From the NCBI GenBank assembly GCA_013426015.1, contig CP058998.1, positions 724,071 through 788,070 on the forward strand: a stretch of DNA of 64,000 bases, written 5' to 3'. This document shows, piece after piece, positions 4,627 to 61,821 of this stretch. Within the stretch, counting starts at the first letter, position 1, and each line of letters starts with the position of its first letter. Under the pieces are notes generated by a model. That model had not been told where the DNA came from. It ran no database searches and saw only the letters and a program-made list of their open reading frames with translations. This DNA comes from Candidatus Fermentimicrarchaeum limneticum (GTDB lineage Archaea; Micrarchaeota; Micrarchaeia; Burarchaeales; Fermentimicrarchaeaceae). The position numbers were made by a program, and so were the translations under genes.

Positions 4627-6816
4627 CTAATCCATGAAGTCCTGCGGTGTGGGCGGCTCCTTCTTGTCCCCCTTCCTCTCCCTTATCTGCCCCACAATCT
4701 TGTCCTGCAGGTCCTTTGGAAGCCTCTCAAAACCAGCGTATTCGTAGTACCACAGCGCCCTGCCCTGCGTGGCTCCCCTTATGTCATCCGAGAAGCCGAA
4801 CATGTCCGCAACAGGGACCTTTGCGGTGAGCGTTACAATCTCCTCCTCCTGCTTTATGTCAAGAACCTGCCCTCTTCTAGCCTGAATCCTTGATATTATC
4901 GACCCCAGGTACTCCTGCGGAGCCTGCACAAGCAGCTTCTGCTTTGGCTCGAGCAGAACAGTTCCTGCAATGAGCATTGCAGCGTAGATAGGCCTCTTTA
5001 TCGCGGGTATTATCTGCGCAGGACCCCTGTGCACCGGGTCCTCATGGATCGTTGCATCAGTAATCTTCACCTTTACTCCGGTCACCTTCTCCTTTGCAAG
5101 CGGACCCAGATTGACAGCTTCCTCAAAACCCTGGATGAGCAACTCCATCACTTCATGCATGTACTGTATTCCCCTTGTCATGTCTATGAGAATGCACTTG
5201 TTGCACACATCCTTGACATTCTTCGCCTCATCTCTGTCCATGCCGCCTTCGATGAATACGTCAACAAGCTTCTTGCCCTTGGGCTTGCCATCGGGGATCT
5301 CCCCCTCAACCATCTTCTTGTATACACCTTCCTCAACTGGCTCGATGACAATCTTGAATTTGGTGTGCTTGTTGGGCGATTTTCCTTCGACGGGACCTAC
5401 TGAACCAGTTATTGTCTCCCTGTATACCACAATAGGCTTGGAAGTCTCTATCTCGATTTTGCCTTCCTTCAGAATCTTGTATTCGATTATCTCAAGATGC
5501 AGCTCTCCCATGCCTGAGATGAGATGCTCACCTGTCTCCTGGTTTATCTCCACTCTCATCGTCGGGTCCTCCTTTGCAAGCCTCCTGAGAACCTCGACAA
5601 GCTTCACCAGATCCTTAGTATTCTTACCCTCTATCGATTTTGTGACAACCGGCTCGGAATAGTGCTTAATCTGCTCGAACGGCTCTATCTTGTCTTCGCT
5701 TACCGTCTCCCCAACATACAAATCATGAAGCCCTACAATCGCGGCAATGTTTCCTGCCGGCACCTCCTCAACTATCACCCTGTCCGGCCCCATGTACACC
5801 CCGACCTGCTGAATTTTCTCCGTTTTGAGCGTCGAGGCGACTGTCACCTCAACCCCTTTCTTCACAGTTCCGGAGAAGAGCCTTCCAATGCCTACCTCTC
5901 CAGCATGCTCGTCCATGACGATCCCGAAAATAACCATGCACACCTTTGCCTTGGGGTCGCAGTTTATCATTCCCTTCCCAGTCGGGCTCTCAATATCACC
6001 CTTCCACAGAATTGGAACCCTGTATCTCTGCGCAACTGCAGGGTTTGGAAGATGACTCACAGCCATCTCGAGCAGAACCTCCTCAAGAGGCGCCTTCTCC
6101 ACGAGGGATTTGTGGTCCTCCACGCTGCAGTACTGGTATATATCCTTGAAAGTCATATTCGTCTTCTGTATGAACGGGAAGCTCAAACCCCACTTGTTGT
6201 AGGCAGAGCCGAAGGCTACATTGCCTTTCTCAACCTGTATCAGCCATTCCTCCTTGAACTCCTTGTAAGCATAACGGTGTATCAAATCATTTACAGACTT
6301 AATTATCTTCACCAGCCGCTCCTGCATGTCATCCGGCCCCAGCTTCAGCTCGTTTATCAGCCTGTCAATCTTGTTGATGAACAGGACGGGCTTCGCCTTC
6401 TCCTTCAGCGCCTGCCTAAGAACAGTTTCTGTCTGCGGCATCACTCCTTCAACCGAATCAATGACAAGCACAACTCCGTCAACCGCCCTCATTGCCCTTG
6501 TGACATGCCCTCCGAAGTCAATGTGTCCAGGAGTGTCTATCAGATTCACCAGGTAATCCTTCCCCCCATGGTGGAACCCGAGCGAAATGTCCGATGCCTT
6601 TATCGTCATGCTCCTCTGCTGCTCTATCTCCTCGCTGTCCATCACCTTCAGTTCGCCTGCGAGCTCCTTTGAGATCAAGCCCGCACCTGCAACCAATGTA
6701 TCCGTAAGAGTTGTCTTTCCATGGTCCACATGCGCGATTATCGCTATGTTCCTTATGTGCTCTGGCTGGTACATGAGCTTCTGCACTTCCGCAACGACAA
6801 ACTCCTTCTTAACCAT
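4627..6816 (-). CDS. fusA: Translation elongation factor 2 (aEF-2)
   Basis: AHVDHGKTTLTD G-domain; 729 aa; gene order EF-2/S7/S12. Confidence 0.95.
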   Translation of the reverse strand: MVKKEFVVAEVQKLMYQPEHIRNIAIIAHVDHGKTTLTDTLVAGAGLISKELAGELKVMDSEEIEQQRSMTIKASDISLGFHHGGKDYLVNLIDTPGHIDFGGHVTRAMRAVDGVVLVIDSVEGVMPQTETVLRQALKEKAKPVLFINKIDRLINELKLGPDDMQERLVKIIKSVNDLIHRYAYKEFKEEWLIQVEKGNVAFGSAYNKWGLSFPFIQKTNMTFKDIYQYCSVEDHKSLVEKAPLEEVLLEMAVSHLPNPAVAQRYRVPILWKGDIESPTGKGMINCDPKAKVCMVIFGIVMDEHAGEVGIGRLFSGTVKKGVEVTVASTLKTEKIQQVGVYMGPDRVIVEEVPAGNIAAIVGLHDLYVGETVSEDKIEPFEQIKHYSEPVVTKSIEGKNTKDLVKLVEVLRRLAKEDPTMRVEINQETGEHLISGMGELHLEIIEYKILKEGKIEIETSKPIVVYRETITGSVGPVEGKSPNKHTKFKIVIEPVEEGVYKKMVEGEIPDGKPKGKKLVDVFIEGGMDRDEAKNVKDVCNKCILIDMTRGIQYMHEVMELLIQGFEEAVNLGPLAKEKVTGVKVKITDATIHEDPVHRGPAQIIPAIKRPIYAAMLIAGTVLLEPKQKLLVQAPQEYLGSIISRIQARRGQVLDIKQEEEIVTLTAKVPVADMFGFSDDIRGATQGRALWYYEYAGFERLPKDLQDKIVGQIRERKGDKKEPPTPQDFMD

Positions 6817-16409: not shown

Positions 16410-16527
16410 CGCCGGGGGCGGGATTCGAACCCACGAGGACCTTTTGGGCCCAACAGCTTAGCAGGCTGCCGCCATTTAGTGCCGTACTCCTTTTTTAGAA
16501 GTTAGGGAACCACTAGGCGACCCCGGC
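16410..16527 (-). tRNA. tRNA-Ser (anticodon GCU) with ~32-nt intron inside the D-loop region
   Basis: Hand-fold: acceptor GCCGGGG/CCCCGGC+G73, anticodon arm GCAGC-CTGCTAA-GCTGT, long variable arm (GGGCC/GGTCC), T-arm GTGGG-TTCGAAT-CCCGC; 118 nt. Confidence 0.7.
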
Positions 16528-16676: not shown

Positions 16677-16980
16677 GCGGTGAGCTTCACCGGAATTGAT
16701 GGGGGCCCTCTCGCCCGGTTGTTCAGACATGGGCTGGACTTTGTGGCTTGCTAGCATGGACAATTCCACCCAGAGAGCGGATGCTCCCGTGATTTGTGTT
16801 TAGGGTTGCTCCTTCCGGCCTGGCCCGGTTCCCACGACCTTCCATCCAGCAAGGCAAAGCTTCAACGCTTGCGCCTGAGCCGAAGTGAGATGGCTCGAAC
16901 CTCTTCCAGCTTTTCGGTCTCACCGTGAAGGGGGTTTGTGATTACAGGAGACCCCTAACCTCCCGACCTATCTCACCGCA
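16677..16980 (-). ncRNA. Signal recognition particle RNA (7S/SRP RNA)
   Basis: Minus-strand CAGGCCGGAAGGAGCAACCCUAA resembles the conserved SRP RNA helix-8 motif; 5' GCGGUGAG pairs with 3' CUCACCGC; ~300 nt; no ORF. Confidence 0.6.
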
Positions 16981-32867: not shown

Positions 32868-32967
32868 GCCGGGGTGACGGAATCTGGTCAACGTGTACGC
32901 CTGGAATATCGTCCCGGCAAGCGTATGGCCTTTACGGGCCTTATGGGTTCAAATCCCATCCCCGGCG
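32868..32967 (+). tRNA. tRNA-Ser (anticodon GGA) with 13-nt intron at the canonical 37/38 position
   Basis: Hand-fold: acceptor GCCGGGG/CCCCGGC+G73, anticodon stem TACGC/GCGTA enclosing CTGGAA+intron+A, long variable arm, T-arm ATGGG-TTCAAAT-CCCAT; 100 nt. Confidence 0.75.
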
Positions 32968-35191: not shown

Positions 35192-35297
35192 GCGGGGGTG
35201 GCAGAGTCAGGTCAAATGCGCAGGACTGAGGCTCCTGTGCCTTTAGTGGCTGCGTGGGTTCAAACCGAAAGGTTGCCCAAAAATCCCATCCCCCGCA
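35192..35297 (+). tRNA. tRNA-Leu (anticodon GAG) with ~19-nt intron inside the T-loop
   Basis: Hand-fold: acceptor GCGGGGG/CCCCCGC+A73, anticodon arm CAGGA-CTGAGGC-TCCTG, long variable arm, T-stem GTGGG...CCCAT with TTCAAA[insert]AT loop; 106 nt. Confidence 0.7.
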
Positions 35298-36779: not shown

Positions 36780-36907
36780 GGGGCCGTGTGCTAGCCTGGC
36801 ATGCTTCCGGCTTCAGAGCAAAACTCTGCCGGAATGGGGTGCCGGCGACCCGAGGAGCTTCCTGAGTAACATCAGGTTGAATGGGAATTCAAATCTCGGC
36901 GGCCCCA
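36780..36907 (+). tRNA. Intron-containing tRNA, identity unresolved (best guess tRNA-Pro, anticodon GGG), apparently with two inserts
   Basis: Acceptor GGGGCCG/CGGCCCC+A73 and T-loop TTCAAAT + CTCGG are clear; ~33-nt insert between T-stem 5' strand CCGAG and T-loop; a second ~26-nt hairpin insert near the anticodon arm; 128 nt. Confidence 0.55.
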
Positions 36908-36927: not shown

Positions 36928-37536
36928 ATGGGTGAACTTTTGATTCAGCAGGAAAAGTATTTGGAAGCTGGCATACATATCGGTACGAAGATAAAGACGC
37001 CCGACATGAACCAGTTCATATACAAAGCAAGGCAGGACAGGCTGTATGTGCTTGATTTGAAGAAAGTTGATGAGAGGATAAGAGTTGCTGCAAAATTCAT
37101 CCCTCACTACAAGCCCGAGGAAATGCTGATTGTTGCCTCAAGATTGTATGCGAGCAGCTCCGCCAAGAAGTTCTGCGAAGCGGTGGGATGCAGGGTTGTT
37201 GAAGGCAGGTTTATTCCAGGAATGCTGACAAACCCCGCAAGAGGGGATTACTGGGAACCGAAGCTGCTGTTCATATGCGACCCGAAGAATGAGAGGCAGG
37301 CAATAAAGGAAGCAAATTCGACAGGCATACCTGTGATTGCACTGTGCGACACGGACAACTCCACGAAATTCGTGGATTGGATAATCCCGTGCAACAACAA
37401 AGGCAGGAAGTCGCTTGCATTAATTTTCTATCTTCTTGCAAGGGAAATCAAGAAGCTTAAGGGAGATGAGGAGTTCAAGCTAAAGCCGGAGGACTTTGAA
37501 GGAATGAGAGACGAGGAGGAAGAGCCCTCAGCTTGA
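36928..37536 (+). CDS. rps2: 30S ribosomal protein S2
   Basis: uS2; start ATG 36928 ([19 protein letters not shown]...) just after the tRNA. Confidence 0.92.
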
Positions 37537-38781
37537 TTCCCTTATGCAGTTGTTCTTGACAAACGGGTCAGTTATGCTCTGGCATACTGTTGAGTTCTTG
37601 CTGTTTATTGCAAGCTGCTTGAAACATTCATCCTCCCAGTTCTGATGGATGATGGTCGCGCATGAGGAGAACGTGTAATTCTGGTTGTATATTATAGACG
37701 AGTAGCACGTGTTCATCGTGTAGGTGTTCTCTATTTTCGAGCAGAAGGACGGGTTGCTAGCGCTTTTTGCAATATTTAGATGGCACGAATCCTTCTTCAT
37801 AGGTTCGGATATCCTGTTGCATAGCGAGATGTTGCCCGTGACATTTGCAACGCCGTAATAGCAGTTATCCTTGTCCGTTATGCACTCGTAGCAGATTATC
37901 CTGGAGCATATGTCCGCATTCCTGCTTTTCACAGCTATGTTTGTGTAGCACTTGTCCTGGTAGAGGTGGGTGCTTATGTTCGAGCATAGCGAGTAGTTCG
38001 TGCTGTCGCTTGCAAAAACCTCAATGCACGAATCTATCTGCAGGTAATCCGGAAGTTCGTTGCAGAGAGAGTAATTTCCGGTGAGCTTCGTGAGGCACAG
38101 GTATTTCGTGTATAGATTGGAAATGCTGCTGCAGAGCGAGGAATTGCTGTTGAGATATGCAAAGTAGCGGTAGCAGTCGCCCCTCACCCCTGCTCCCGCA
38201 GGCAATGCGCATATGGAATAGTCATTCTTGTTCTTTGCAAATTCAACATAACACATGTCGGTAAGGGACTGGTTTTGGATTTCCGCACATATCGACTCAT
38301 TGTTTCTTGCCTTTGCCATGCAGAGATGGAAGTCGTAACCGTCAGTCATTTCCTCGCAGAGCACGGTATCGTCACCCAAGTCCAGGCGGCACTGCTTTCT
38401 CAGAATTGCATTCTCAATTTTTTTGCATGTGACAACTCCCACAACCGGTGCCAAGGTATGGTAGCAGTCGTCCCTCGTCTCCATGCTGAGTATTCTTCCG
38501 CAGAGTGTCGAGTCATTCAGATTTATTGCAAACCTGAGGTTGCAGGCATCCCTGAGAGAGTCTGAGAAGATGAACGAGCATGCGGTCAGGTTGTTCTTGG
38601 AGATTGCATCGTTGTAGTAGCATCTGTCTCCCTCTGCGCGGTCGGTTATTTCAGCGCACTGCAATTCCACAGGCGGCGGGGTTACTGTACCGTTATTTTT
38701 CGGTCCTTCAGGAAGCTGATATGAGACGCATCCAAAGAGCAATAAGAAAAATACCGTGAACAAGGCTATTTTGACGTTCAT
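37528..38781 (-). CDS. Cys-rich tandem-repeat lipoprotein (predicted secreted, N-glycosylated surface protein)
   Basis: Signal peptide plus lipobox-like [18 protein letters not shown]; ~15 repeats of ~26 aa with pattern C-x2-I-x5-7-[RD]-x-C-[YF]; ~30 Cys; many N-x-S/T sequons. Confidence 0.6.
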
Positions 38782-38886
38782 GAATAGATTTAAGCTGCAT
38801 CTATTTATTAACATTTCTTTAAGGTCAGCTTACCCTCTTGTCTTCATCTGGCTTTCGCCATCAGGAATACCTCGTATCATCACTAA

Positions 38887-38979
38887 TAGCCCCGGTCGGA
38901 TTCGAACCGACGTGAGCGGGTCCAAAGCCCGCTATCTTACCAGGTTTCACCAACCTCTTGGCCACTAGATGACGGGGCT
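38887..38979 (-). tRNA. tRNA-Gln (anticodon UUG) with ~19-nt intron in the D-arm
   Basis: Hand-fold: acceptor AGCCCCG/CGGGGCT+A73, anticodon arm GCGGG-CTTTGGA-CCCGC, T-arm GTCGG-TTCGAAT-CCGAC; D-stem ATCT/AGAT encloses 29 nt (loop + insert); 93 nt. Confidence 0.7.
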
Positions 38980-42232: not shown

Positions 42233-44743
42233 CTATTTTATTACAAAAACAGTTGCAGTCTTCTCATCCTCATCTGGCAGAGCATCTGAGTAAATCTCTC
42301 CCTTAAAAGTATGAATTTTTAAAAGCTCAACATTTCCTTTTTCGAACTTTTCTTCTGCGTATGGAGTTGCATCACTATAGGTGGTTCCCAGAATGACTTT
42401 CTTGAAGCCAGCCTTCTCTGCTAAATCCTTGACAAAACCGATCGAGGCTTCGTATATCTCATTCGTATTCTTGTAAGAGCTTGTTATGTTTATGGAATCT
42501 ATTATCAGAGTGGATTCACCCCCGATCTTGCCTGCGAAGAGCCATGCCTGCCCGATTCTCTGTTCTTTTCCTTCTTTTGTTATGGATATCTCGGCTATTT
42601 GAGTCGCAGCATCCATCATGTAGATAGGTAGAGTCCACCTGTTACCTCCATTAAAAGCAACACAGCAACCCGAATCGTTCCCGTTTGTCAAGGCAGTCAA
42701 CGGGTTTTTATCACTCAATTTCACCGAGATTATAATCTCCCCTGCTTCGCCTTTCATCGGCTTCACAGGCATGCCGAGCAATCTTTCAATCTCCTGAACA
42801 TGGAATAGGGCAGTTCTAGCCTCGCCTTTAATCTCCTCTGAGTCTACTACCATCGAACCAGGCGTTCCTGTGGTCTTTAGATACTTCTCAAGCACCGACA
42901 CTGCTTCCTTTGACCATTTTTTATCATTTGACAGCATCATCTCAATTATTGCCTTTGCTCTCTCCTCTGGGGTTTTGTAGTCCCGTGCATCAAGAGAGGT
43001 CAGTTCCGCAAATACCTTTCCCGGCTTCTTGAAAACCTCCCCTTTCGGGTTGCTGAAAAGCTGCATCACCACATCCTGGAACGTATCATTGATGTGCTCC
43101 TCTCCTGCCTCCAGCTTCTCAATTCCTGTTAATGTTTTCTTGAAGACTACTTTGTCAATCCCCTTGTAGTAGACGTAGACATCGGTATTTATTCCAAGCT
43201 TGTTCATTTCTGTGAGTGCTTGCTTATTCTCTTCTAGTGAGTCGTAGTACTTTTGGAAGGTGTTTTCAAGCCCGTACTTTATGAGTATCCTTACTTCCTC
43301 GTTTTTTTCAATAAAATCTAAACCAGATATCATTTTGATAAGATATTCCTTCTGGTCTTGGGCTATTTTTTCAAATGGGAATTTCACATCTTCCGCTATT
43401 TTCTTAGCGCCTAGGTCAATAAGCTGTGCAGAGAAGTCCTGCAGCTTGAGCCGGGAGAGCTCTTCTTTTGAGAAATTGGGTATATAACTAATAAGACGGG
43501 GATTTTTCAACAGACTAGTCACAGCAGAACTTAAATCTTGCATTGTTAATCTTTTTCCCTCTGTTTGTGTTAACAGCGCACCTAACACCTTTTCTCTCTC
43601 TCCCCAAGATTCAATAAACCCCTCCTCTTTTAGTTTTTCGTTTAACAAGTCTTCTAATTTTTTAATTTCTGATATCCACCCACTCATTTCTTCTTTGGTT
43701 TTTATGATTCCCTCCATTGCTAGATTTACAAGATTCCCTCTAATTTCAAAATCATAAAAGATATCGCAGGCTACATCTGCCACCTTTGCCCTTTTTTCAA
43801 TCTCTGGCACCCAGTCTCTCAGTTCCTCAACGGTTTTTGCCACTCCTGTTTTTACTAGTGAATCCAAATACTTCGAGCCTATTTGCCGCGTGGATGAATT
43901 AGCAGAAATAAGTTTGAAGTCTAACTCATCGTATACGCGGTCTAATCTTTTTATATGGCGTACGTCGGATTCATATAATTTCACTAGTTTTTTAAGGTCT
44001 TCTGAGGATTTTACCATGTCTTTTTTTACCAATTCGGGTAGATGGTTGCGGCATACGTACTTACCCCATAAATCATTAAACTTGAAGTCTCTCAATAGGT
44101 CTGCTTTTGCTAGGTTTGGGAAAACAAAGGATATGGGCAACCCACCGAGCTCTCTTCCATGATATTCTGCGTCCCGTGTTAATTCATGTAGTTTGACTAT
44201 TGCGTGTAAGTCATTCGGGGATTTTATCACTCCCTTATCCAACATAAGTTGTAGACTGTCTCCCCACATGATATTGCTGATAGTGATTAGTTCTAAACCG
44301 CAGCACCCTAAGTCATTCGGGGATTTTATCACTTCTTTCTTTCCTAGTTTCGAAATAAATTCATCCAGATCTATCGGTCCAACTGAGATTCCTTGATGCT
44401 CGGAAAGATATTTATGCAATCCGATCAGCTTTTTTCCATACCTTTCCAAATCTTCCGTGTCTTTTATCAGACCACTCTCTCCAAGCAGTAGGAAACCTCT
44501 TTCGAAATTCATCCAGTAACGTCCAGGTTCTGATAACTCGTATAATTTATGCAGGGCTGTAATGTTTTCAGGTGTGACCTTAAGGCGCATTCCTTTCAGT
44601 ATTCTCTCGTGAATCTCTCTTTCATAGGAGGGGATTTTCGCCAGCTCCCTCTTCATTCTCTGCTCAGGGATTTCAGGCTTTATGCGCTCTGTTTCTACTG
44701 GCTGCTCGGCAGGCGCTTCAATGGGTTTCAGCTTCTCTGGCAT
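42233..44743 (-). CDS. Large hypothetical protein (836 aa) with internal tandem repeat
   Basis: No recognisable catalytic motif; 105-bp direct DNA repeat (~44207 and ~44312) encodes duplicated (V)IKSPNDL segment; no signal peptide. Confidence 0.5.
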   Translation of the reverse strand: MPEKLKPIEAPAEQPVETERIKPEIPEQRMKRELAKIPSYEREIHERILKGMRLKVTPENITALHKLYELSEPGRYWMNFERGFLLLGESGLIKDTEDLERYGKKLIGLHKYLSEHQGISVGPIDLDEFISKLGKKEVIKSPNDLGCCGLELITISNIMWGDSLQLMLDKGVIKSPNDLHAIVKLHELTRDAEYHGRELGGLPISFVFPNLAKADLLRDFKFNDLWGKYVCRNHLPELVKKDMVKSSEDLKKLVKLYESDVRHIKRLDRVYDELDFKLISANSSTRQIGSKYLDSLVKTGVAKTVEELRDWVPEIEKRAKVADVACDIFYDFEIRGNLVNLAMEGIIKTKEEMSGWISEIKKLEDLLNEKLKEEGFIESWGEREKVLGALLTQTEGKRLTMQDLSSAVTSLLKNPRLISYIPNFSKEELSRLKLQDFSAQLIDLGAKKIAEDVKFPFEKIAQDQKEYLIKMISGLDFIEKNEEVRILIKYGLENTFQKYYDSLEENKQALTEMNKLGINTDVYVYYKGIDKVVFKKTLTGIEKLEAGEEHINDTFQDVVMQLFSNPKGEVFKKPGKVFAELTSLDARDYKTPEERAKAIIEMMLSNDKKWSKEAVSVLEKYLKTTGTPGSMVVDSEEIKGEARTALFHVQEIERLLGMPVKPMKGEAGEIIISVKLSDKNPLTALTNGNDSGCCVAFNGGNRWTLPIYMMDAATQIAEISITKEGKEQRIGQAWLFAGKIGGESTLIIDSINITSSYKNTNEIYEASIGFVKDLAEKAGFKKVILGTTYSDATPYAEEKFEKGNVELLKIHTFKGEIYSDALPDEDEKTATVFVIK

Positions 44744-44877: not shown

Positions 44878-45477
44878 CTACTGGCAGCAGTGGAAAGGTT
44901 TGCTGGTGTAGGATGGATCGGCAACTCTATTTGCACCACACTCGTCTGGCAGGTTTTGGACTACAATTGGCATTATTTGACCGCCAGGACTAAGCCACTC
45001 GTTGGACCACTCGCCTCCGGTTGGGATGGTGATTGCTCCAGCATGGCATGCGCCATAAAGTTGCGGTATGTCACACAAAGTCTTGTTTTCACTCTGGCAT
45101 TGCGCCATAGAATCATCTATTGACTTTGCACTATTTGAAGAGGTGTCTATGCAGAAAGCTCCTGCCCTTGTCATATCAGTAGGACATGGAAGTTGGGCTA
45201 TAGTTACTGCTGGACCAGGATTTCCTTGGGATCCTTGCGGTCCGGCTGGCCCAGTATCTCCTTCTGGACCTTGGGGTCCCACCGAACCTGTATCGCCTTT
45301 AGATCCCTGAGGTCCTACATCACCTCTTGAACCTTGGGGTCCTATTGGACCAGTATCGCCCTTCGGACCCTGCTGTCCGGTATCACCCTTCGCTCCTTGC
45401 GGTCCTGCGGGACCTACCTGTGTGCAACCGGCAAAAAACAGCGCTACAATCAATAAGACAATTAAGAGCCTTCTCAT
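44878..45477 (-). CDS. Collagen-like (Gly-X-Y repeat) lipoprotein with Cys-rich C-terminal domain
   Basis: Signal peptide plus lipobox-like [18 protein letters not shown]; ~25 uninterrupted G-X-Y triplets; C-terminal ~110 aa with 8 Cys. Confidence 0.65.
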
Positions 45478-45555
45478 TACCTTCACCCCCAATTATTTAG
45501 TTAGGGCTTTTTAATATATGCATTAGTCAAGATAATCCTTTATAAGATAAATGTA

Positions 45556-45722
45556 TGGGGCCAGAGGGATTTGAACCCTCATTAACAGGTGTCTCATAAA
45601 GCATCTCATCCTTTGTCAATGCTCCAATTCTAAATCATCCCCGAAGGTCATTCCACCTGTAACAATGCTCCTCTACAAAAGGAACTGGAGCCTGTTGTTC
45701 TGCCAAGTTATACCATGGCCCC
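45556..45722 (-). tRNA. tRNA-Trp (anticodon CCA) with ~90-nt intron at or near the canonical position
   Basis: Hand-fold: acceptor GGGGCCA/TGGCCCC+A73, anticodon stem ACAGG/CCTGT with loop CTCCAG..., T-arm GAGGG-TTCAAAT-CCCTC; 167 nt precursor. Confidence 0.7.
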
Positions 45723-50929: not shown

Positions 50930-53900
50930 GTGAGTTTTGGAAAGGCTACAGCTCCTTTTAGCAAGTGCAGAGAAGGCTGTTAGTAGTGGACGGGCTCACG
51001 GATCGCTTACGCTTTCCATCTACACCCCCACTCTATCAACAGGATCTGCTATCCTGGCCTTGAACTGCCTCGTTTTGAGAATGGTTTCGACCTTAGATGC
51101 TTTCAGGTCTTATCCTTTGGCGCGTGGCTGCCCGGCGATGCTTGACACAACCGGTATACTAGAGGCGCCGGTTCCCCGTTCCTCTCGTACTCGGGGAGCC
51201 ATACTCTCAAGCAGTCAACACTCCTAGGAGATACTACCGAACTGTCTCGCGACGTTCTGAACCCAGCTCGTGTAAGTCTTTAATGGATGAACAACCCAAC
51301 CCTTGGTGGCTCCTGCACCACCAGGATGACTTAGGCCGACAGCGATGTACCAAACCGCAAGGTCGATATGTACTCTCGCCTGCGACGAGCCTGTTACCCC
51401 CGGGGTAGCTTGTCTGTCAGCTTGGACCCTCAACAAAAGGGATTCCAAGGTTCGTTAAGCCCCTCTTTCGAGTCTGAATCCCACGCTTTTAAGGATTCAG
51501 TCAGCCATGCATTTGTCTTTAACCCTTACCAGCGGATTTCTGACCCGCTTAAGCATAGCATTGGGCGCCCTTGTTTCCTTATCGAGGGCGTACCGCCCCA
51601 GCCAAACTATCCATCTGCCGATGTTCCCTTACAGGTGAGGAACACAGCAACTGAAGAGCAGTGTTTCACTTTCGCATTCATACCCCCCGCAAGGGGCATT
51701 TCGACGCTCCTGCTTACGCTGTGCAACAACCACCGTATTCCAACGACAGACTATAGTAAAGCTCCACGGGGTCTTCGTTTCCCCCTAGAAGTCCTCGGCA
51801 TCTTCACCGAGTAGTGAGTTCACCAGGTCCCAGGTAGGGACAGCGGGACGCTCGTTATGCCATTCATGCAAGCCACCAATTAAGCGGCGAGGTATTACGC
51901 TACCTTAAGAGGGTCAGAGTTACCCCCGCTCTTTGCTGGTGCTTTGCTCCATTGAACTGGAGTTTGACATACCAGTAGTGAGCAGGCATCGCCCCCTATA
52001 CTAAGCCTTTCGACTTTGCAGGGAGCTGTGTTTTTGATATACAGTCGACGTCCCCTTGTCACTGCGACCTGCGATTGCAGCTTGCGCCACAATTGCAGGC
52101 ATGGCTTCTTCCTAAGTTACGCCACTGGATTGCCGAGTTCCCTTACCTGAGTTTTCCTGACACGCCTTGGCTTTCTCTGCCAGCAGCACCTGTACTAGTT
52201 CTAGGTACGATCTCGCGGAATCGCTGCCAGCTTCCTTTTCACGGGCTCAAGGAATCAACGGAACCACCTTGCGGCGGCCTTCCCAGAGTTAGACTGCTTC
52301 TCCTCATAACGAGTCTCTGCAGTCCTGCAGAGGTTAGATGAGCTCTCGCTCACTCCACCTATCCCCAAGCGTCAGAAGTGGCCTTGTGTCACCACGTCTA
52401 CCCACGAGGCACTGGGATCTTAACCAGTTTCCCGTTTGCTCTCGAGTAATTAGCTGAGAGCTTAGGATCGGCTTACTCTTAACTGACGAACATTGTTAAG
52501 AAAACCGTGTGCTATCCGGCGTCCAGGATTCTCACCTGGATTCGCTGTTACTAACACCAAGATATTTATTTCTGACAGGTCCATTGGAGCTCACGCCCCA
52601 ACTTCTACCCAGCCAGAACACCCCCCTACCAGATGATGCTTGTGGCATCCTCCGGGGTCTCGGCACCTGACTTAGCCCCGGTAATCTTCGGAGCCTGCAC
52701 TCTCGACTGGTCCGCTGTTACGCGTTGTTTAAAGGATGGCTGCTTCTGAGCCTACCTTCCAGCTGTTTAAGAATGGGGACTCCTTTGTGATTAGCACTCA
52801 GTCAGGATTTAGGGGCCTTAACCTCGGTCTCGGTCGTTCCCGTCCCGGCACACCAGCTTACCCGGTGCGCCCGACTCCCATCTTCTATGGTGATTATGAA
52901 TTCGGAGTTTGAGAAGACAGTGGAGCCTTTCGGCTCCGTTCTGCCTGATCAGTGCTCTACCTCATAATCAACCTCTGATGGGGCTATCCTACAGGATACT
53001 TCGGGGGGGACCCGCTATCGCCAAGTTCGATAGGACTATCACCCCTACACGCAAGTCACCCGAGCAGATATACTAGCACCGGTTGCGGGCCTCCACCAAT
53101 CGGAGGATCGGCTTCGCCCTGCTCGCGTGTAGATCACATTGGCTTCGGGTCTGCAGGAAGTGATTCATGGCACTTTCGTACCACCTGCCTCACACCTTGC
53201 GGTGCTGCGCAGTCTCGCTTTCGCTCAGCCTTTCGGCTCACCACTTCCAGCAACTCCTTGGCTCTTGCTTCAAGAAGAACGATACAACCCTGCTCAATCT
53301 CCCGTCGCTTTATATATTTCTACATATCGCTTCTGGGAGACCGCATTCCTTTCGGGCTGTACCCTCTGTAGCCACTCAGTTTCAGGTTCTTTTAACTCCC
53401 CTTTCGGGGTGCTTTTCAGCGTTCGCTCGCGCTACTTTACGCTATCGGTCTCAGGTTATATTTAGAGTTGGGAGTTGTTGCTCCCGTGTTCGCGCCCAAT
53501 ACTCGATGGACGCTACTCTGCACATCCCCTCACCCTCCGCTTTTCGCATACGAGGCTGTCACTCTCTTTGGCAGCGCTTTCCAGTGCACTTCAGCTAGAC
53601 GGAAGGAGAATGGAATGAATCACATCTCCTGCAAGTTGCCCTGCAGGATTCGAATTGCCTCTGTGGGGCGTTCAATCGCCTTTACTGACCCCATACCAGT
53701 TGGTTTCTTTTCCTGGGGGTACTAAGATGTTTCAATTCCCCCCGTGCTCCTTCGCCTCTTTTGGAGGTGAATTATTCGGCAATCCCAGGTTCAATGGCTG
53801 CCTGCGCCTACCCTGGGCTTATCGCAGCTTGCTACGGCCTTCATCGCTACCTGAGCCAAGCCATCCCCTGAATGGCATACTCACTGCACTCGTTTTTGCC
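50930..53900 (-). rRNA. 23S ribosomal RNA (boundaries approximate, +/-50 nt)
   Basis: Minus strand contains AGUACGAGAGGAAC sarcin-ricin loop, CUGAAAGCAUCUAAG near 3' end, and 5'-region GGAUGGCUUGGC...GAUGAAGGCCGUAGCAAGCUGCGAUAAGCC. Confidence 0.9.
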
Positions 53901-53991: not shown

Positions 53992-54086
53992 TGGACTCGG
54001 CGAGATGTTCAGCAGTTTGGAAACTACTTTTGAACTCGCGGCCTCCTCCTCGCAAAGGAGGCGCTCTACCACTGAGCTACGAGCCC
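53992..54086 (-). tRNA. tRNA-Ala (anticodon UGC) in the 16S-23S spacer, with ~23-nt intron in the T-loop
   Basis: Hand-fold: acceptor GGGCUCG/CGAGUCC+A73, D-arm GCUC-AGUGGUA-GAGC, anticodon arm CCUCC-UUUGCGA-GGAGG, T-stem GCGAG...CUCGC with TTCAAA[insert]T loop; 95 nt. Confidence 0.75.
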
Positions 54087-54595
54087 ATCGGCTTCAAGAA
54101 CTATTAGGAGTGAGCGTATTGATGTTCGCTTACCTTGCACTCACACTTTTTCATTCTCGTATCATGGAACGAAAATTTAAGGAGGTGATCTATCCGCAGG
54201 TTCCCCTACGGATACCTTGTTACGACTTAGCCCCTCTCATGACGAATTAGCTCGACGAGATCCGAAGGGATCCCGCCTCACTAAAACTTCATTTGAGTGA
54301 CTTGACGGGCGGTGTGTGCAAGGAGCGGGGACGTATTCACCGCTCGATGTTGACAAGCGATTACTAGGGATTCCAGCTTCATGAGGGCGAGTTTCAGCCC
54401 TCAATCCGAACCTAGGCCGAGTTTGGGGATTAGCTCCTCCTCTCGGAGTGGCAACCCATTGTCTCGACCATTGTATGCCACGTGTAGCCCGGGAGATTCA
54501 GGGCATACTGACCTACCGTTGCCGTCTCCTTCCTCCTGTTTAACACAGGCAGTCCCAACAGAGTGCTTCATCTCCGGAGAGATGAATAGCAACTG

Positions 54596-55105
54596 TCAGC
54601 GACGGTCTCGCTCGTTTCCGGACCGCATGAGTGCTTTTTTTACTTCGGAGTGCTTCATAGAATCCTTGACAAAAACAATGAATTCCCTTGGAGTCATTAT
54701 TGCCAGCCTTCCTTTGATGAATCTGGTTCTGAAGCCCAGAAGCTCAAGTAGCATCTGGTCCTTGTACGAAGCACGCGCCAGGTAAGGCGTGTCCCCCTCT
54801 ACCCCGCCGCAGGAATCGAACATCCCTGCAACGTATGAGGAGGAGTATCTGTTCCTTTTCCTGAAAACATCTATTTGATTCTTCTCAGCTCCCTCAAAGA
54901 ATGTCCTGTACGCTGAATGATAGAAGTACACGTCCCTGTCAGTCATCTGTATCTTCTCTGGAGGAATCTTCAGCGTCTTCATTATTTCTTTCAGGAAAAT
55001 CTCCCTGATCTCTCCGCTGCCTCGTATTCCGATTCCACTGGGAACCCTCCTTCCTTTCCATAAACCTATTAGGTATGCCAGTTCAGGCGTCATTTTAATT
55101 CTCAT
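54596..55105 (-). CDS. LAGLIDADG-like homing endonuclease ORF encoded in the 16S rRNA intron (motif 1 degenerate)
   Basis: Two LAGLIDADG-type motifs (LAYLIGLWKG lacking acidic residues; YVAGMFDSCGGV); ORF 3' end runs ~22 nt into the downstream exon. Confidence 0.6.
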   Translation of the reverse strand: MRIKMTPELAYLIGLWKGRRVPSGIGIRGSGEIREIFLKEIMKTLKIPPEKIQMTDRDVYFYHSAYRTFFEGAEKNQIDVFRKRNRYSSSYVAGMFDSCGGVEGDTPYLARASYKDQMLLELLGFRTRFIKGRLAIMTPREFIVFVKDSMKHSEVKKALMRSGNERDRR

Positions 55106-55147
55106 TCTCTCACTCCAAAACGGATGCACTCATGCGATTTACCGGAC
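54618..55147 (-). mobile_element. 16S rRNA intron (archaeal bulge-helix-bulge type) carrying an endonuclease-like ORF
   Basis: Insertion between GGUUAAGUCCGG and AACGAGCGAGACC; flanks GCAUGAGUGC / GCACUCAUGC can pair; GUCCGG duplicated at both junctions. Confidence 0.8.
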
Positions 55148-55287
55148 TTAACCGGACACTTCACAGCACGAGCTGACGATGGCCATGCACCACCTCTCGG
55201 CTCGTCAGGTAAGATCTTCAGTCTGACCTTCATACTGCCGTCGCTCCCGGTGATATTCCCGGCGTTGAATCCAATTAAACCGCAGCA

Positions 55288-55330
<43 letters not shown>

Positions 55331-56415
55331 ACCTTGCGGCCGTACTCCCCAGGCGGCAGACTTAACACTTACGCTACGGCACTGCCACAGCACTAAGCTA
55401 TGGCAACACCACAGTCTGCATAATTTACTGCTAGGGCTACTCGGGTATCTAATCCGATTCGTTCTCCTAGCCTTCGTCCCTCACTGTCGGACGCGTTTTG
55501 GCCAAGCGCCTTCGCCACTGGGAGTCCTCACAGGATTAACGGATTTTACCCCTACCCCGTGAGTACTCTTGGCCTCCCCCGCTCCCAAGCCCGTCAGTAT
55601 TCTCTGCACTCCTTCAAGTTGAGCTTGAAGATTTCACAGAGAACTTAGCGGGCCAGCTACGGACTCTTTAAGCCCAATATTCGTGGATACCACTCGAGCT
55701 GCCGGTGTTACCGCGGCGGCTGTCACCGGTCTTGCCCAGCTCTTATTCCGCAAGCTCCTTAAGCTTACGAAAAGATGCTCGCGTGGAGCATCACTCAGAA
55801 TCCCCTCGTCACGCTTTCGCGCATTGCGAAGGTTTCGCGCCTGCTGCATCCCGTAGGACTGGAGCCCTTGTCTCAGTGCTCCTCTGGGGGCGCCAACTCC
55901 CATTGCCCCCACCGATTATCGGCTTGGTGGGCCGTTACCCCACCAACTACCTAATCGGAAGCAGTCTCATCCTAAGGCAGACATGGCTGCATTTCGCCAC
56001 GCTGTTTGGGCTATGAAGCTTTCCAGCATCCATAACCTATGTGGTATTAGCCTCAGTTTCCCGAGGTTATCCCCCTCCTTAGGGCAGATTGACCACTCGC
56101 TACTCAGCCGTATGCCACCCCTCCTTGCAGAAGGGGTAGACTTGCATGGCTTAGTCGAATTCTGATAGCAGTACCCTCCAGCAGGATCAACTGGAATTAG
56201 AGCACACTATTCTTCCGCAAGTTCGGCGAAAAGACACCACTATCGCTCACTTCTCCTGTTCTTGAAGCCAGAGTCAAATCCAAACAAGCTTGGATTTCCA
56301 TCGATATTATGCGCTATAGAGGAAGGGTATATCTCACAGCACGAAATAGAATTCGCGCTCCATTTACGCCGTAATCTACAGCGTCCGCACGGCGAAAGAA
56401 GATTATGCACTCTCT

Positions 56416-57330: not shown

Positions 57331-57402
57331 AGCCCCAGGCGAGGATTGAACTCGCGGCCTTTTGCTTACCATGCAAACGCTCTACCACTGAGCTACTGGG
57401 GC
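57331..57402 (-). tRNA. tRNA-Thr (anticodon GGU), no intron
   Basis: Hand-fold: acceptor GCCCCAG/CTGGGGC, D-arm GCTC-AGTGGTA-GAGC, anticodon arm TTTGC-ATGGTAA-GCAAA, T-arm GCGAG-TTCAATC-CTCGC; 72 nt. Confidence 0.8.
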
Positions 57403-59202: not shown

Positions 59203-59817
59203 ATGAAATCTGAAGCAATAATAAACTATTACTTCCAAAATGAATCAGGTGGTTTGTTGAGGTTTCCGCCCATAATGCGCAATTTGAAGAGAGGTCCGCA
59301 GGTTGTGCTACCGAAGGATTTCGGGATGGTTGCCGCTTTCACAGGAATTGGCAAGAAAAGCACTGTTGTGGATGCAGGCACAGGAAGCGGGTTCCTTGCA
59401 ATAGCGCTTGGTAATATAGTAAAGAGCGTTGTCACCTATGAGAAGAGGGAGGACTTTGTGAAGCTTGCGGAGAGGAACATCAAGGCAAGCGGGTTGAGGA
59501 ATGTCAAAATAAAAAGGAAAGATGTCTTCAAGGGAATAAGTGAAAGGGATGTGGATTTGGTGACGCTGGACTTGGCAGATTCCGAGAAGGCCATCAGACA
59601 TGCAAAGAGAGCATTGAAGGATGGGGGGTATGCTGTTGGCTTCCTGCCAAACATGGAGCAGGTGAAGGAGTTTGTGAGGGAGCTGGAGAAGAACAAATTC
59701 TCAGAAGTTTTCACGATGGAATGCATAACAAGAGAAATTCTTGTCAGGGAACAGGGAGTGAGACCTGAGAACATGGGGCTGATGCACACGGTGTATCTTA
59801 CTTTCGGGAGAAAGTAG
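59203..59817 (+). CDS. trmI: SAM-dependent tRNA methyltransferase, TrmI-like (tRNA m1A)
   Basis: VVDAGTGSGFLAIAL SAM-binding motif; C-terminal ...RPENMGLMHTVYLTFGRK resembles TrmI/Gcd14. Confidence 0.65.
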   Translation: MKSEAIINYYFQNESGGLLRFPPIMRNLKRGPQVVLPKDFGMVAAFTGIGKKSTVVDAGTGSGFLAIALGNIVKSVVTYEKREDFVKLAERNIKASGLRNVKIKRKDVFKGISERDVDLVTLDLADSEKAIRHAKRALKDGGYAVGFLPNMEQVKEFVRELEKNKFSEVFTMECITREILVREQGVRPENMGLMHTVYLTFGRK

Positions 59818-60351
59818 TCAGATAAGCTTCTTCTCATAGACATTCTCATAAACCGGTCCTTTGGGAGTCAGGGTGCTCTTCTTGAGAAGAATCCTGTCAA
59901 CCGTGCAGTCTCCGAGTTCAGTCTCGGCGTTCGTCTCAAGGAATTCAATCAGCTTTGTTTTGTCTTTCAGGAATTTCACCCTCGCCAGCGTTATATGGGG
60001 CGAGAAATCTTCTTTCTTGAAACCAAGCCTTGCAAGCTCCCCTCCAAGTTGGTCGTGGATACTCTTCAGCTCAGGTGCGTCAACACCGACCCAGATAACT
60101 CGTATGTAATTCCTGTTGGGGAATGCCCCGGCACAGTTGCAGCTCATCTCAAACTTTCTGCAGTTCACCTTTTCCATTGCCTGGGTTACCTTGCCCTTCA
60201 TGGTGTCGTCTATCTCTCCTAGGAAGTGCATGGTTAGATGCAGGTTCTCCTTCTCAACAAGCTTCACTCCGTCAATGGAGAGCTGCTTCTGCAGTTCTGC
60301 CATCTTCTCCCTTAGCCGTTCGTCCACTTCAACTGCAATGAAAGTTCGCAT
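59818..60351 (-). CDS. thpR: RNA 2',3'-cyclic phosphodiesterase (2H phosphoesterase, ThpR/LigT family)
   Basis: Two H-x-T-x motifs (HLTMHFLG, PHITLARV); 177 aa from ATG 60351. Confidence 0.8.
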   Translation of the reverse strand: MRTFIAVEVDERLREKMAELQKQLSIDGVKLVEKENLHLTMHFLGEIDDTMKGKVTQAMEKVNCRKFEMSCNCAGAFPNRNYIRVIWVGVDAPELKSIHDQLGGELARLGFKKEDFSPHITLARVKFLKDKTKLIEFLETNAETELGDCTVDRILLKKSTLTPKGPVYENVYEKKLI

Positions 60352-60363
60352 ATGGTAATTTAA

Positions 60364-60939
60364 ATGAAAGCCAGATATAAGAGTTTTATGATTGTGATTG
60401 GCGTTGCAGGGCTGAGAGCAGCTGGCAAGAGCATTGCCAACGAAGTTGCAAAGGAGTTTGGGGTTAATTCGGTAGAAATGAGAAGCATAGTAGTTGACAT
60501 GATGAAGGAGAAGAGGATCGCGGTAACCAACAGGAGCCTTAGGGAATTCGCAGACGAATTGAGGAAGAAGGAAGGTTATGATGTTGTTGCGAGAAAGGTT
60601 ATTGAGAAGATCAAGAAGATGAATGAGAAGGCGCTTGTAGTGAACGGAATAAGAGGTTATGAGGAACTGAAGCGTTTCAGGGAGGCTTTCGGCGACAAGT
60701 TTATCCTCATAGGAGTTTTCGCTCCTCAGAAAATGAGATTTGAGAGGGTGATTAAGAGGAATCTGCCGGAGGATCCGAAGAGCTGGGAGGAGTTCGTGTG
60801 GGCTGACGAGAAGGAGCTGGGGTGGGGCACAGCGGACTCCTTCGCGTTCTCTGATCACATAATTGTGAATGCGGAGACGAAGGAGGAGATGAGGGAAGAG
60901 GTGCAAAAACTGCTGAAGAAGCTGCTTGCAAAAGGATAG
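60364..60939 (+). CDS. P-loop nucleotide kinase-like protein (archaeal dephospho-CoA kinase/UPF0200-like)
   Basis: Walker A GLRAAGKS; 191 aa; family assignment tentative. Confidence 0.55.
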   Translation: MKARYKSFMIVIGVAGLRAAGKSIANEVAKEFGVNSVEMRSIVVDMMKEKRIAVTNRSLREFADELRKKEGYDVVARKVIEKIKKMNEKALVVNGIRGYEELKRFREAFGDKFILIGVFAPQKMRFERVIKRNLPEDPKSWEEFVWADEKELGWGTADSFAFSDHIIVNAETKEEMREEVQKLLKKLLAKG

Positions 60940-60976
60940 ATTTTTATTGAACTTCTGAGATATCTGTGTGGTTAGA

Positions 60977-61816
60977 ATGAGAAAATTGTTTTGGGTGCTC
61001 ATCTTTGCGGCAGTGGCAGTTAACGCCACATACGTGAACATAAAGGAGCCCTTCCCATCAAGCGGTTTGGTTGAGAACAGCAGCATCTACATGGGCAAGG
61101 CGGCTCCTGGGCAGACGGTTTATATAGTTGCCGAGAGAGCAACGATAGACGCGGCTGGCGGGAGTATGATCTACATGGGGTGGGACAAGCTGGCGATTGA
61201 GGATTTGCCGGAAGGCTGGACCGCGGAGGACAGCCCGTGGTATGAGACCCCCATGAAGGCTAAGATAAGGATATCCCCTGACGCGAAGAACGGTACGAGA
61301 TATTATTTCAAGGCCAAGGCTGTGGATGAGGGGAACCTCAACGGCCTGGGAAATCTGACGATAAACGTTTCCATTGACGTGAGCGATGATGTTTTCAAGA
61401 TAGATGTCAGCCCGCCGGAAGTTGAAACGGGGGTTGGACAGCCGGCAATTTATTACATAGACATAGAGAACGAGGGGGCTGCAAGCGATACGTTCAGCAT
61501 CACCTCAAGAGGAGTGCCGGCATGGAAATTCAAGAAGGACGTATTCGTGCCGCATGCGATTGACGTCACTCTGCAGGCAAAGAAGACTGTTCCCTATGAG
61601 GTCGTGAGCAACGAGCAGAATGAGATGGACATATACATAAACGTTACATCCCTCTCAAGCGACCAGATAAGCAGGGAGGTTAGGGTGACGCTTAAAGCGA
61701 GACCCTCCCTGATTTCGGATTACAGGGCAACCGGCCATGGTTTGCTGGTGTTCCCGCTCATAGAGAGCCCTATATACTCGCTCATAGCGTTCTTCTCAAA
61801 TTCCTTCTTTAGGTAG
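60977..61816 (+). CDS. Secreted/cell-surface protein of unknown function with C-terminal membrane anchor
   Basis: N-terminal signal peptide (MRKLFWVLIFAAVAVNA), several N-x-S/T sequons, C-terminal hydrophobic segment. Confidence 0.5.
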   Translation: MRKLFWVLIFAAVAVNATYVNIKEPFPSSGLVENSSIYMGKAAPGQTVYIVAERATIDAAGGSMIYMGWDKLAIEDLPEGWTAEDSPWYETPMKAKIRISPDAKNGTRYYFKAKAVDEGNLNGLGNLTINVSIDVSDDVFKIDVSPPEVETGVGQPAIYYIDIENEGAASDTFSITSRGVPAWKFKKDVFVPHAIDVTLQAKKTVPYEVVSNEQNEMDIYINVTSLSSDQISREVRVTLKARPSLISDYRATGHGLLVFPLIESPIYSLIAFFSNSFFR

Positions 61817-61821
61817 AATGA

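Follow-up and report, generated by a model that had tools for sequence, protein, structure and literature searches.

Candidate bulge-helix-bulge introns in the D-arms of tRNA-Ser(GCU) and tRNA-Gln(UUG) and in neighbouring tRNA genes of a Micrarchaeote locus

Do tRNA-Ser(GCU) and tRNA-Gln(UUG) of an archaeal ribosomal-protein locus carry introns within their D-arms, and is interruption the rule among the transfer RNA (tRNA) genes around them? The question is posed by a 64-kilobase (kb) stretch of DNA (hereafter the window; 49% G+C) that consists largely of a conserved archaeal cluster of ribosomal-protein and RNA-polymerase genes, and for which an earlier note had proposed D-loop inserts in both genes and introns in seven of eight tRNA genes. 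We found eight tRNA genes in the window, seven of them interrupted, with eight introns in total, six of which occupy non-canonical positions (Table 1). An exhaustive single-deletion scan of the 13 other intergenic gaps of the window yielded no additional tRNA genes, leaving tRNA-Thr(GGU) as the only intron-free one, as the note had it. Gene structures, junctions, junction geometry, conservation with covariation, and taxonomic placement were established directly; on these grounds it is highly probable that the inserts are ordinary archaeal pre-tRNA introns of the bulge-helix-bulge (BHB) type, spliced by protein, in a Micrarchaeota genome.

The host is a Micrarchaeote (DPANN), as judged from protein matches, because homologues of both L3 and S9 carry Micrarchaeota or Micrarchaeia labels. 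L3 shares 79-83% identity with six metagenome-assembled genomes (MAGs) labelled Candidatus Micrarchaeota or Micrarchaeia and at most 62% with everything else, its nearest counterpart among the species representatives searched standing at 83%; the best S9 match in the protein collection is 95% identical. Rfam models place an archaeal ribosomal RNA (rRNA) operon, with 23S and 16S genes, on the minus strand of the window.

D-arm introns of tRNA-Ser(GCU) and tRNA-Gln(UUG)

The earlier note had located both genes correctly, and both lie on the minus strand. Its D-loop inserts of ~32 and ~19 nucleotides (nt) are real, but their lengths are 33 and 20 nt, and the insert of tRNA-Gln lies at the border of D-stem and loop (22/23) rather than inside the loop.

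The class II tRNA-Ser(GCU) gene reads GCCGGGG-UC-GCC-[42 nt]-GGC-G, and continues through an ordinary anticodon arm (CUGCUAA), a 5-base-pair (bp) variable arm and a T-arm to the acceptor strand. ARAGORN scores the spliced form at 118.0 and leaves the unspliced form undetected. A metagenome scan for both exon blocks with a short gap between them retrieved seven intron-less homologues, whose D-arm reads GCC-TAGTGGTA(G/T)-GGC (as RNA, GCC-UAGUGGUA(G/U)-GGC) and to which the window gene aligns with one clean gap. UAGUGGUAU can be obtained from the window sequence solely by removing 16476-16508; the junction U20/A21 is therefore unique. Upstream of L3 in the relatives L001-L006, the orthologues are interrupted at the same site by 30-34 nt; their exons are near-identical and their inserts diverged, and compensatory changes among them preserve the inner helix of the intron, which begins at the second intron nt. 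In more distant Micrarchaeota loci (L007-L049), no tRNA-Ser(GCU) was found near L3.

In tRNA-Gln(UUG), 29 nt separate the two D-stem strands of the precursor, and G22 and G23 are the flanking nt of the intron, placing it just within the stem's 3' strand. Several BHB registers built by hand failed; the GCCA/UGGU register came from an exhaustive BHB scan, which gave a single tRNA-compatible solution, removing 38937-38956, and was then confirmed by orthologues. These were drawn from S9-anchored loci, where the gene adjoins ProRS in seven relatives (L081-L084, L092-L094). Six of the syntenic orthologues (L082-L084, L092-L094) are intron-less, with the D-arm ATCT-AGTGGCCAA-GGAT or a near variant, and the window gene minus the predicted 20 nt gives AUCU-AGUGGCCAA-GGAU, exactly the D-arm of the intron-less orthologues. 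Once spliced, the gene scores 119.0 in ARAGORN; unspliced, it is undetected there and yields a partial Rfam match of 28.4 bits, below threshold.

We considered whether the introns might be real but their boundaries or identities different, for example with a 35-nt tRNA-Ser(GCU) intron leaving UAGUGGU, or with the tRNA-Gln junction shifted by 1 nt (A22). The alternative serine register (central UAGU/ACUA, bulges GG/U and AA/U) also pairs at 4/4 and has a longer outer helix, and ARAGORN scores do not separate D-loop lengths. The 35-nt intron was nevertheless ruled out because the intron-less homologues need A21: they read TAGTGGTAT or TAGTGGTAG, not TAGTGGT, which leaves T20/A21 only. For tRNA-Gln, the shifted junction has just 0-1 central pairs, and the orthologues have G22. 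We regard different boundaries as very unlikely, and no folding emerged that assigned other anticodons or boundaries and removed the need for non-canonical introns, an outcome that the earlier note had named as contrary to its reading.

The 22/23 intron of tRNA-Gln was present only in the window and in L081, a 95%-identical relative in which gene and intron are identical, and was absent from L082-L084 and L092-L094. The six relatives without the intron differ in S9 identity, part of them being closer and part more remote; parsimony on the compared sequences favours a recent gain of the intron in the window/L081 lineage.

Both genes have a noncoding RNA gene as neighbour. An archaeal signal recognition particle (SRP) RNA adjoins tRNA-Ser(GCU); it scores 87.2 bits against an Rfam gathering score of 96.5 and would therefore be missed by default Rfam annotation. 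Three nt downstream of tRNA-Gln lies a canonical box C/D small RNA (sRNA) with the layout GUGAUGA, 12-nt guide, CUGA, GGCGAAAGCC hairpin spacer, AUGAAGA, 12-nt guide, CUGA. L084 and L092-L094 retain its boxes and guides, and the spacer covaries. The D' guide is complementary over 9 nt to the 23S rRNA of the window, at 23S positions 1997-2005, with A2000 as predicted target; the D guide has no target within the window. In relatives, PNP and phosphoribosyltransferase genes stand between the sRNA and tRNA-Gln; the two are adjacent in the window, so co-transcription is possible.

Junction geometry, rival explanations and a splicing model

A complete central helix (4/4 pairs), together with 3-nt bulges, is found at seven of the eight required junctions, as against 2.7% of arbitrary (site, length) pairs in the same sequences. 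The BHB signal is thus far beyond chance, even with a few equivalent junctions per gene. For tRNA-Ser(GCU) and tRNA-Gln, the BHB rule independently selects the same junctions as the intron-less homologues. Strict motifs occur in tRNA-Ala and in intron 1 of tRNA-Pro, and one flanking helix is missing from each of the motifs of tRNA-Gln, tRNA-Leu, tRNA-Ser(GGA) and intron 2 of tRNA-Pro. Compensatory changes maintain intron helices in tRNA-Ser(GCU) and in both introns of tRNA-Pro, the genes that the covariation covers; the tRNA-Gln intron has an identical copy only, and the tRNA-Leu gene is invariant. Intron-less orthologues of tRNA-Ser(GGA), tRNA-Trp, tRNA-Leu, tRNA-Ala and tRNA-Pro were not found in the compared loci.

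These features bear on the possibility that the inserts are retained, the genes being pseudogenes or encoding tRNAs with enlarged D- and T-loops. Standard detectors do reject the unspliced sequences, and the D-stem of tRNA-Pro is weak, with two Watson-Crick pairs. Against retention, the exons are near-invariant across relatives at 70-95% protein identity, and the introns drift with compensatory changes, as is typical of functional genes whose insert is structured and spliced; the genes also occupy conserved sites within ribosomal-protein and rRNA operons, and BHB geometry bounds each insert at the exact junction that restores the cloverleaf. A 42-nt D-loop or a 30-nt T-loop, moreover, does not fit the known tRNA tertiary fold. 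ARAGORN, which left six of the eight precursors undetected, called all spliced products as tRNAs with scores of 114-121 (116.9 for the intron-free tRNA-Thr). Retained inserts are thus assigned only a slight probability, and excision as BHB introns is preferred.

An assembly or chimera artefact was also weighed, since the window probably derives from a MAG, with a closest S9 match of 95% and no exact match to its proteins in the protein collection. Assemblies that are independent in sample and source (JGI, Logan, NCBI), however, contain these interrupted genes too, in unchanged syntenic positions: upstream of L3 and in the TruB/S13, RpoD/L18e, RpoN/S2 and ProRS gaps. L081, the closest relative, has identical introns, and others have homologous but diverged ones. 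The independent assemblies effectively refute an artefact, to which we give almost no credence.

A textbook BHB (central CCGG/CCGG, bulges UA/A and AA/A, 13-bp inner helix) delimits an insert of 524 nt in the 16S rRNA gene, and removal of that insert restores the conserved GGUUAAGUCCGGUAACGAGCGAGACC; BHB splicing would therefore be needed in this organism anyway. Most of the insert is filled by an open reading frame (ORF) of 177 amino acids (aa) with the LAGLIDADG-like motifs LAYLIGLWKG and YVAGMFDSCGG. It has no match in Pfam, NCBIfam or PDB, and may, from its motifs, be a degenerate homing endonuclease.

Such an ORF, together with a report of group I introns in archaeal rRNA genes (PMC6125680), could be taken to favour self-splicing group I/II introns or remnants of mobile elements as the source of the tRNA inserts. 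At 13-94 nt, however, the inserts are far below the size of ribozyme introns, Rfam matched no group I/II intron in the window, whether at its gathering score or with E relaxed to 10, and all junctions fit BHB geometry. Neither the window nor ~1.4 Mb of compared loci contains intron paralogues, and there is thus no evidence for transposition. The probability of a self-splicing or mobile origin is accordingly negligible, and the protein-spliced BHB intron is the reading carried forward.

According to this model, each tRNA gene would be transcribed as a single colinear precursor whose exon-intron junctions fold as BHB or relaxed BHB motifs, with two 3-nt bulges on opposite strands and a 4-bp helix between them. 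A splicing endonuclease would cut after the second nt of each bulge and an RtcB-type ligase would join the exons, the outcome being normal 72-87-nt tRNAs. With relaxed motifs making up about half of the total and non-canonical positions the majority, the enzyme would have to be of broad specificity; cleavage of relaxed or non-canonical BHB motifs requires an (alpha-beta)2 or epsilon2 endonuclease (PMC3239211, PMC5829648). It is most likely a three-unit epsilon2 EndA as in the Micrarchaeote ARMAN-2 (Candidatus Micrarchaeum acidiphilum), by analogy with that organism. In vitro, recombinant ARMAN-2 epsilon2 EndA cuts a relaxed BHB at 59/60 as well as a strict one of the canonical kind (PMC3239211), and structures of that enzyme are available (PMC3488258, PMC12397907).

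Several points weigh against this reading. Cleavage, ligation and enzyme type are inferred. No EndA or RtcB gene was found in the window (Pfam, ~44 ORFs) or in the compared loci, where EndA was sought by tblastn with an M. jannaschii EndA sequence as a possibly imperfect query. The missing flanking helices of the tRNA-Gln, tRNA-Leu and second tRNA-Pro motifs count here as well, as does the tRNA-Trp junction, where the central helix has 3/4 pairs only. In the tRNA-Ser(GCU) precursor, five contiguous pairs (UAGUG/CACUA) can form between the bulges, so that the 4-bp register requires one to open, and the unconstrained minimum free energy fold favours a symmetric 3x3 internal loop.

The other tRNA genes and their annotation

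All eight tRNA genes are colinear and contiguous, without any split or permuted arrangement in the window. The predicted mature tRNAs span 72-87 nt, and the interrupted genes carry the anticodons GCU, UUG, GGA, GAG, GGG, CCA and UGC. Their coordinates are given in Table 1 together with those of neighbouring features.

Table 1. tRNA genes, predicted introns and neighbouring features of the window
Feature	Coordinates	Strand	Description
tRNA-Ser(GCU), class II	16410-16527	-	precursor 118 nt, mature 85 nt; exon 1 16509-16527, exon 2 16410-16475
tRNA-Ser(GCU) intron	16476-16508	-	33 nt, D-loop 20/21; central AGUG/CACU, bulges GU/U and AA/A
SRP RNA	16678-16978	-	archaeal type
L3	17158-18147		ribosomal protein
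tRNA-Ser(GGA)	32868-32967	+	
tRNA-Ser(GGA) intron	32907-32919	+	13 nt, canonical 37/38; central CUGG/CCGG, 7-bp outer helix
tRNA-Leu(GAG)	35192-35297	+	
tRNA-Leu(GAG) intron	35262-35280	+	19 nt, T-loop; central GGGU/GCCC, inner AACC/GGUU
tRNA-Pro(GGG)	36780-36907	+	two introns; mature 73 nt, ARAGORN 114.0
tRNA-Pro(GGG) D-arm	36789-36804	+	
tRNA-Pro(GGG) intron 1	36813-36834	+	22 nt, 32/33; central CCGG/CCGG, strict BHB
tRNA-Pro(GGG) intron 2	36855-36887	+	33 nt, 53/54; central CCCG/UGGG, one flanking helix absent
ORF	37528-38814	-	428 aa
Box C/D sRNA	38825-38883	-	
tRNA-Gln(UUG)	38887-38979	-	precursor 93 nt, mature 73 nt; exon 1 38957-38979, exon 2 38887-38936
tRNA-Gln(UUG) intron	38937-38956	-	20 nt, 22/23; relaxed BHB, central GCCA/UGGU, bulges AG/A and AA/G, inner GGUU/AACC, outer helix absent
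ORF	42233-44743	-	836 aa
ORF	44878-45492	-	204 aa
tRNA-Trp(CCA)	45556-45722	-	Rfam 43.6 bits; found by ARAGORN -i
tRNA-Trp(CCA) intron	45591-45684	-	94 nt, canonical 37/38
23S rRNA	50962-53892	-	
tRNA-Ala(UGC)	53992-54086	-	in 16S-23S spacer
tRNA-Ala(UGC) intron	54006-54028	-	23 nt, T-loop 59/60
16S rRNA	54180-56197	-	
ORF in 16S insert	54599-55129		177 aa
16S rRNA insert	54616-55139	-	524 nt
tRNA-Thr(GGU)	57331-57402	-	sole uninterrupted tRNA gene of the window; Rfam 71.6 bits, ARAGORN 116.9
RNA-processing gene cluster	59203-63408		
GCD14/Trm61-like tRNA methyltransferase	59203-59817	+	
LigT/ThpR-domain protein	59818-61086	-	422 aa
ELP3-like protein	61822-63408	+	radical-SAM/GNAT

Canonical introns proposed earlier for tRNA-Ser(GGA) and tRNA-Trp both proved to lie at 37/38. 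The tRNA-Ser(GGA) gene scores 46.1 bits with Rfam, its mature form scores 116.3 in ARAGORN, and the orthologous introns measure 12-14 nt. T-loop introns had likewise been anticipated in tRNA-Leu and tRNA-Ala, and were placed at 56/57 and 59/60. For tRNA-Leu(GAG), located by the scan for acceptor and T-stems described below, position 56/57 follows from the BHB rule; judged by sequence, the A-run there leaves 56/57 to 59/60 indistinguishable. The gene is conserved in seven relatives, and its mature form scores 118.0. The L082 copy (5068-5189 of that locus) carries an extra 16-nt canonical 37/38 intron besides the common T-loop intron. The tRNA-Ala(UGC) intron forms a strict hBHBh' motif whose central UUCA/UGAA is accompanied by an outer helix of 5 bp and an inner one of 6 bp; the gene has the G3:U70 identity pair, and its mature form scores 120.9.

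The gene at 36780, described earlier only as a tRNA with two inserts, is tRNA-Pro(GGG); its two introns occupy 32/33 and 53/54. In L082, L083 and L092-L094, each intron shows covariation of its inner helix, with the variants CAGAG/CUCUG, CGGAG/CUCCG, CAGAA/UUCUG and CAGGG/CCCUG in intron 1 and CCUGA/UCAGG, CUUGA/UCAGG and AGCUUGA/UCAAGCU in intron 2. Its D-arm, UGCU-AGCCUGGCA-UGCU, has G11-C24 and C12-G23 as sole Watson-Crick pairs, flanked by U10.U25 and U13.U22. This weak D-stem is kept in seven relatives. A D-arm intron giving a perfect UGCU/AGCA stem was rejected, as it left no acceptable anticodon arm and the weak stem is conserved.

The mature form of tRNA-Trp(CCA) scores 121.2. Its intron could base-pair with the exons at two places, nt 58-64 with tRNA positions 31-37 and nt 25-30 with 38-43; the N+5 rule, counting five nt upstream from the D-like box, leads to C34 for the box UUGA and to C39 for the box AUGA. 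The euryarchaeal tRNA-Trp intron holds a nested box C/D guide through which positions 34 and 39 are methylated in Haloferax (Clouet d'Orval et al. 2001, via PMC4090602). The window intron, a possible nested guide, resembles it in its length (94 nt), canonical position, complementarity to the exons and match to both documented targets, C34 and 39. Unlike it, the boxes are degenerate (AUGA/UUGA for CUGA; AUGAUUU/AUGAGAU for RUGAUGA) and position 39 is C, not U; Rfam gave no guide-RNA match to this intron at a lax threshold. A 204-aa ORF with collagen triple-helix repeats adjoins tRNA-Trp.

Standard tRNA annotation, as the earlier note had warned, is unreliable for these genes. Default ARAGORN returned two of the eight (tRNA-Ala and tRNA-Thr), ending tRNA-Ala wrongly at 54004; allowing anticodon-loop introns (-i) gained tRNA-Trp as well as tRNA-Ser(GGA), the latter misnamed Ala(GGC). 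The Rfam tRNA model recovered three of eight at its gathering score, and a lax threshold added tRNA-Ser(GGA) and the partial tRNA-Gln match. ARAGORN and Rfam runs at default or lax settings thus detected 2-5 of the eight genes. Searching for acceptor stems of 7 bp next to a T-stem produced 205 candidates, just eight of them tRNA-like, and recovered tRNA-Ser(GCU), tRNA-Leu and tRNA-Pro among these. Since default finders overlook 5-6 of these eight genes and give others a wrong end or name, statistics on codon usage, completeness and tRNA complement would be wrong for Micrarchaeota MAGs without BHB-aware tools.

Known archaeal tRNA introns and neighbouring genes

Intron density and positional diversity of this kind had been called typical of a few archaeal lineages, which agrees with the placement in Micrarchaeota: 56% of tRNA genes are disrupted in ARMAN-2, with introns at various, non-canonical sites (Fujishima et al. 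2011, PMC3239211). Heavily disrupted tRNA genes and the broad-specificity epsilon2 endonuclease were described for this Micrarchaeote in 2011; the trait is thus known from the phylum, and the window shows no departure from that known system. The window shares with ARMAN-2 its phylum, a high proportion of interrupted tRNA genes (seven of eight within these 64 kb) and non-canonical introns with strict and relaxed BHB motifs, as well as a 59/60 T-loop intron (here in tRNA-Ala) of the type that the ARMAN-2 enzyme cuts in vitro. ARMAN-2 tRNA-Pro(GGG) has two T-loop introns, and its tRNA-Pro(CGG/UGG) has one Watson-Crick pair in the D-arm (PMC3239211); in both organisms, then, tRNA-Pro(GGG) carries two introns, one of them at 53/54, and a tRNA-Pro has a degenerate D-stem. 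The two differ in that the second tRNA-Pro(GGG) intron lies at 32/33 in the window and at 59/60 in ARMAN-2, and in that the D-arm introns of tRNA-Ser(GCU) and tRNA-Gln are not among the examples in the main text of PMC3239211. The window lineage is also distant: even the closest MAGs show just 79-83% L3 identity to it.

Multiple tRNA introns, up to three per gene, and non-canonical ones are likewise known from Thermoproteales, other Crenarchaeota, Nanoarchaeota and Korarchaeota (Marck & Grosjean 2003; Sugahara et al. 2007, 2008; via PMC4090602), and the non-canonical sites reviewed there comprise 20/21, 22/23, 25/26, 29/30, 30/31, 45/46, 53/54, 56/57 and 59/60. The window resembles those archaea in the sites 20/21, 22/23, 53/54, 56/57 and 59/60, in relaxed BHB motifs and in intron gain or loss between close genomes; by comparison with them, it has neither split or permuted tRNA genes nor intron paralogues suggestive of transposition.

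The present data extend the ARMAN-2 observation of disrupted tRNA genes to a distant, non-acidophilic branch of Micrarchaeota. They add nucleotide-exact, homologue-backed junctions for two D-arm introns, together with a presence/absence polymorphism of introns among close relatives that bears on how BHB introns are gained. No new mechanism is revealed; the modestly new point is visible intron turnover. With seven of eight genes disrupted in this 64-kb window alone, the proportion is not significantly higher than the 56% of ARMAN-2 (binomial P ~0.07). We put forward, as a tentative and rather doubtful extrapolation, that this lineage (sediment/groundwater Micrarchaeota) has ~85-90% of its tRNA genes interrupted genome-wide, above ARMAN-2 and equal to the Thermoproteales maximum of 87%, with introns still turning over. 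If true, the clade would be a natural system in which a mesophilic DPANN archaeon could be caught gaining BHB introns.

The ORFs of 428 and 836 aa have no Pfam or NCBIfam match, and the former is kept in synteny in all relatives. An RNA-processing gene cluster near the end of the window includes, besides a GCD14/Trm61-like tRNA methyltransferase and an ELP3-like radical-SAM/GNAT protein, a 422-aa protein that combines an uncharacterised N-terminal domain of ~245 aa with a C-terminal RNA 2',3'-cyclic phosphodiesterase (LigT/ThpR) of 175 aa. The substrates of such 2H phosphoesterases are 2',3'-cyclic phosphate ends, the kind left by the splicing endonuclease.

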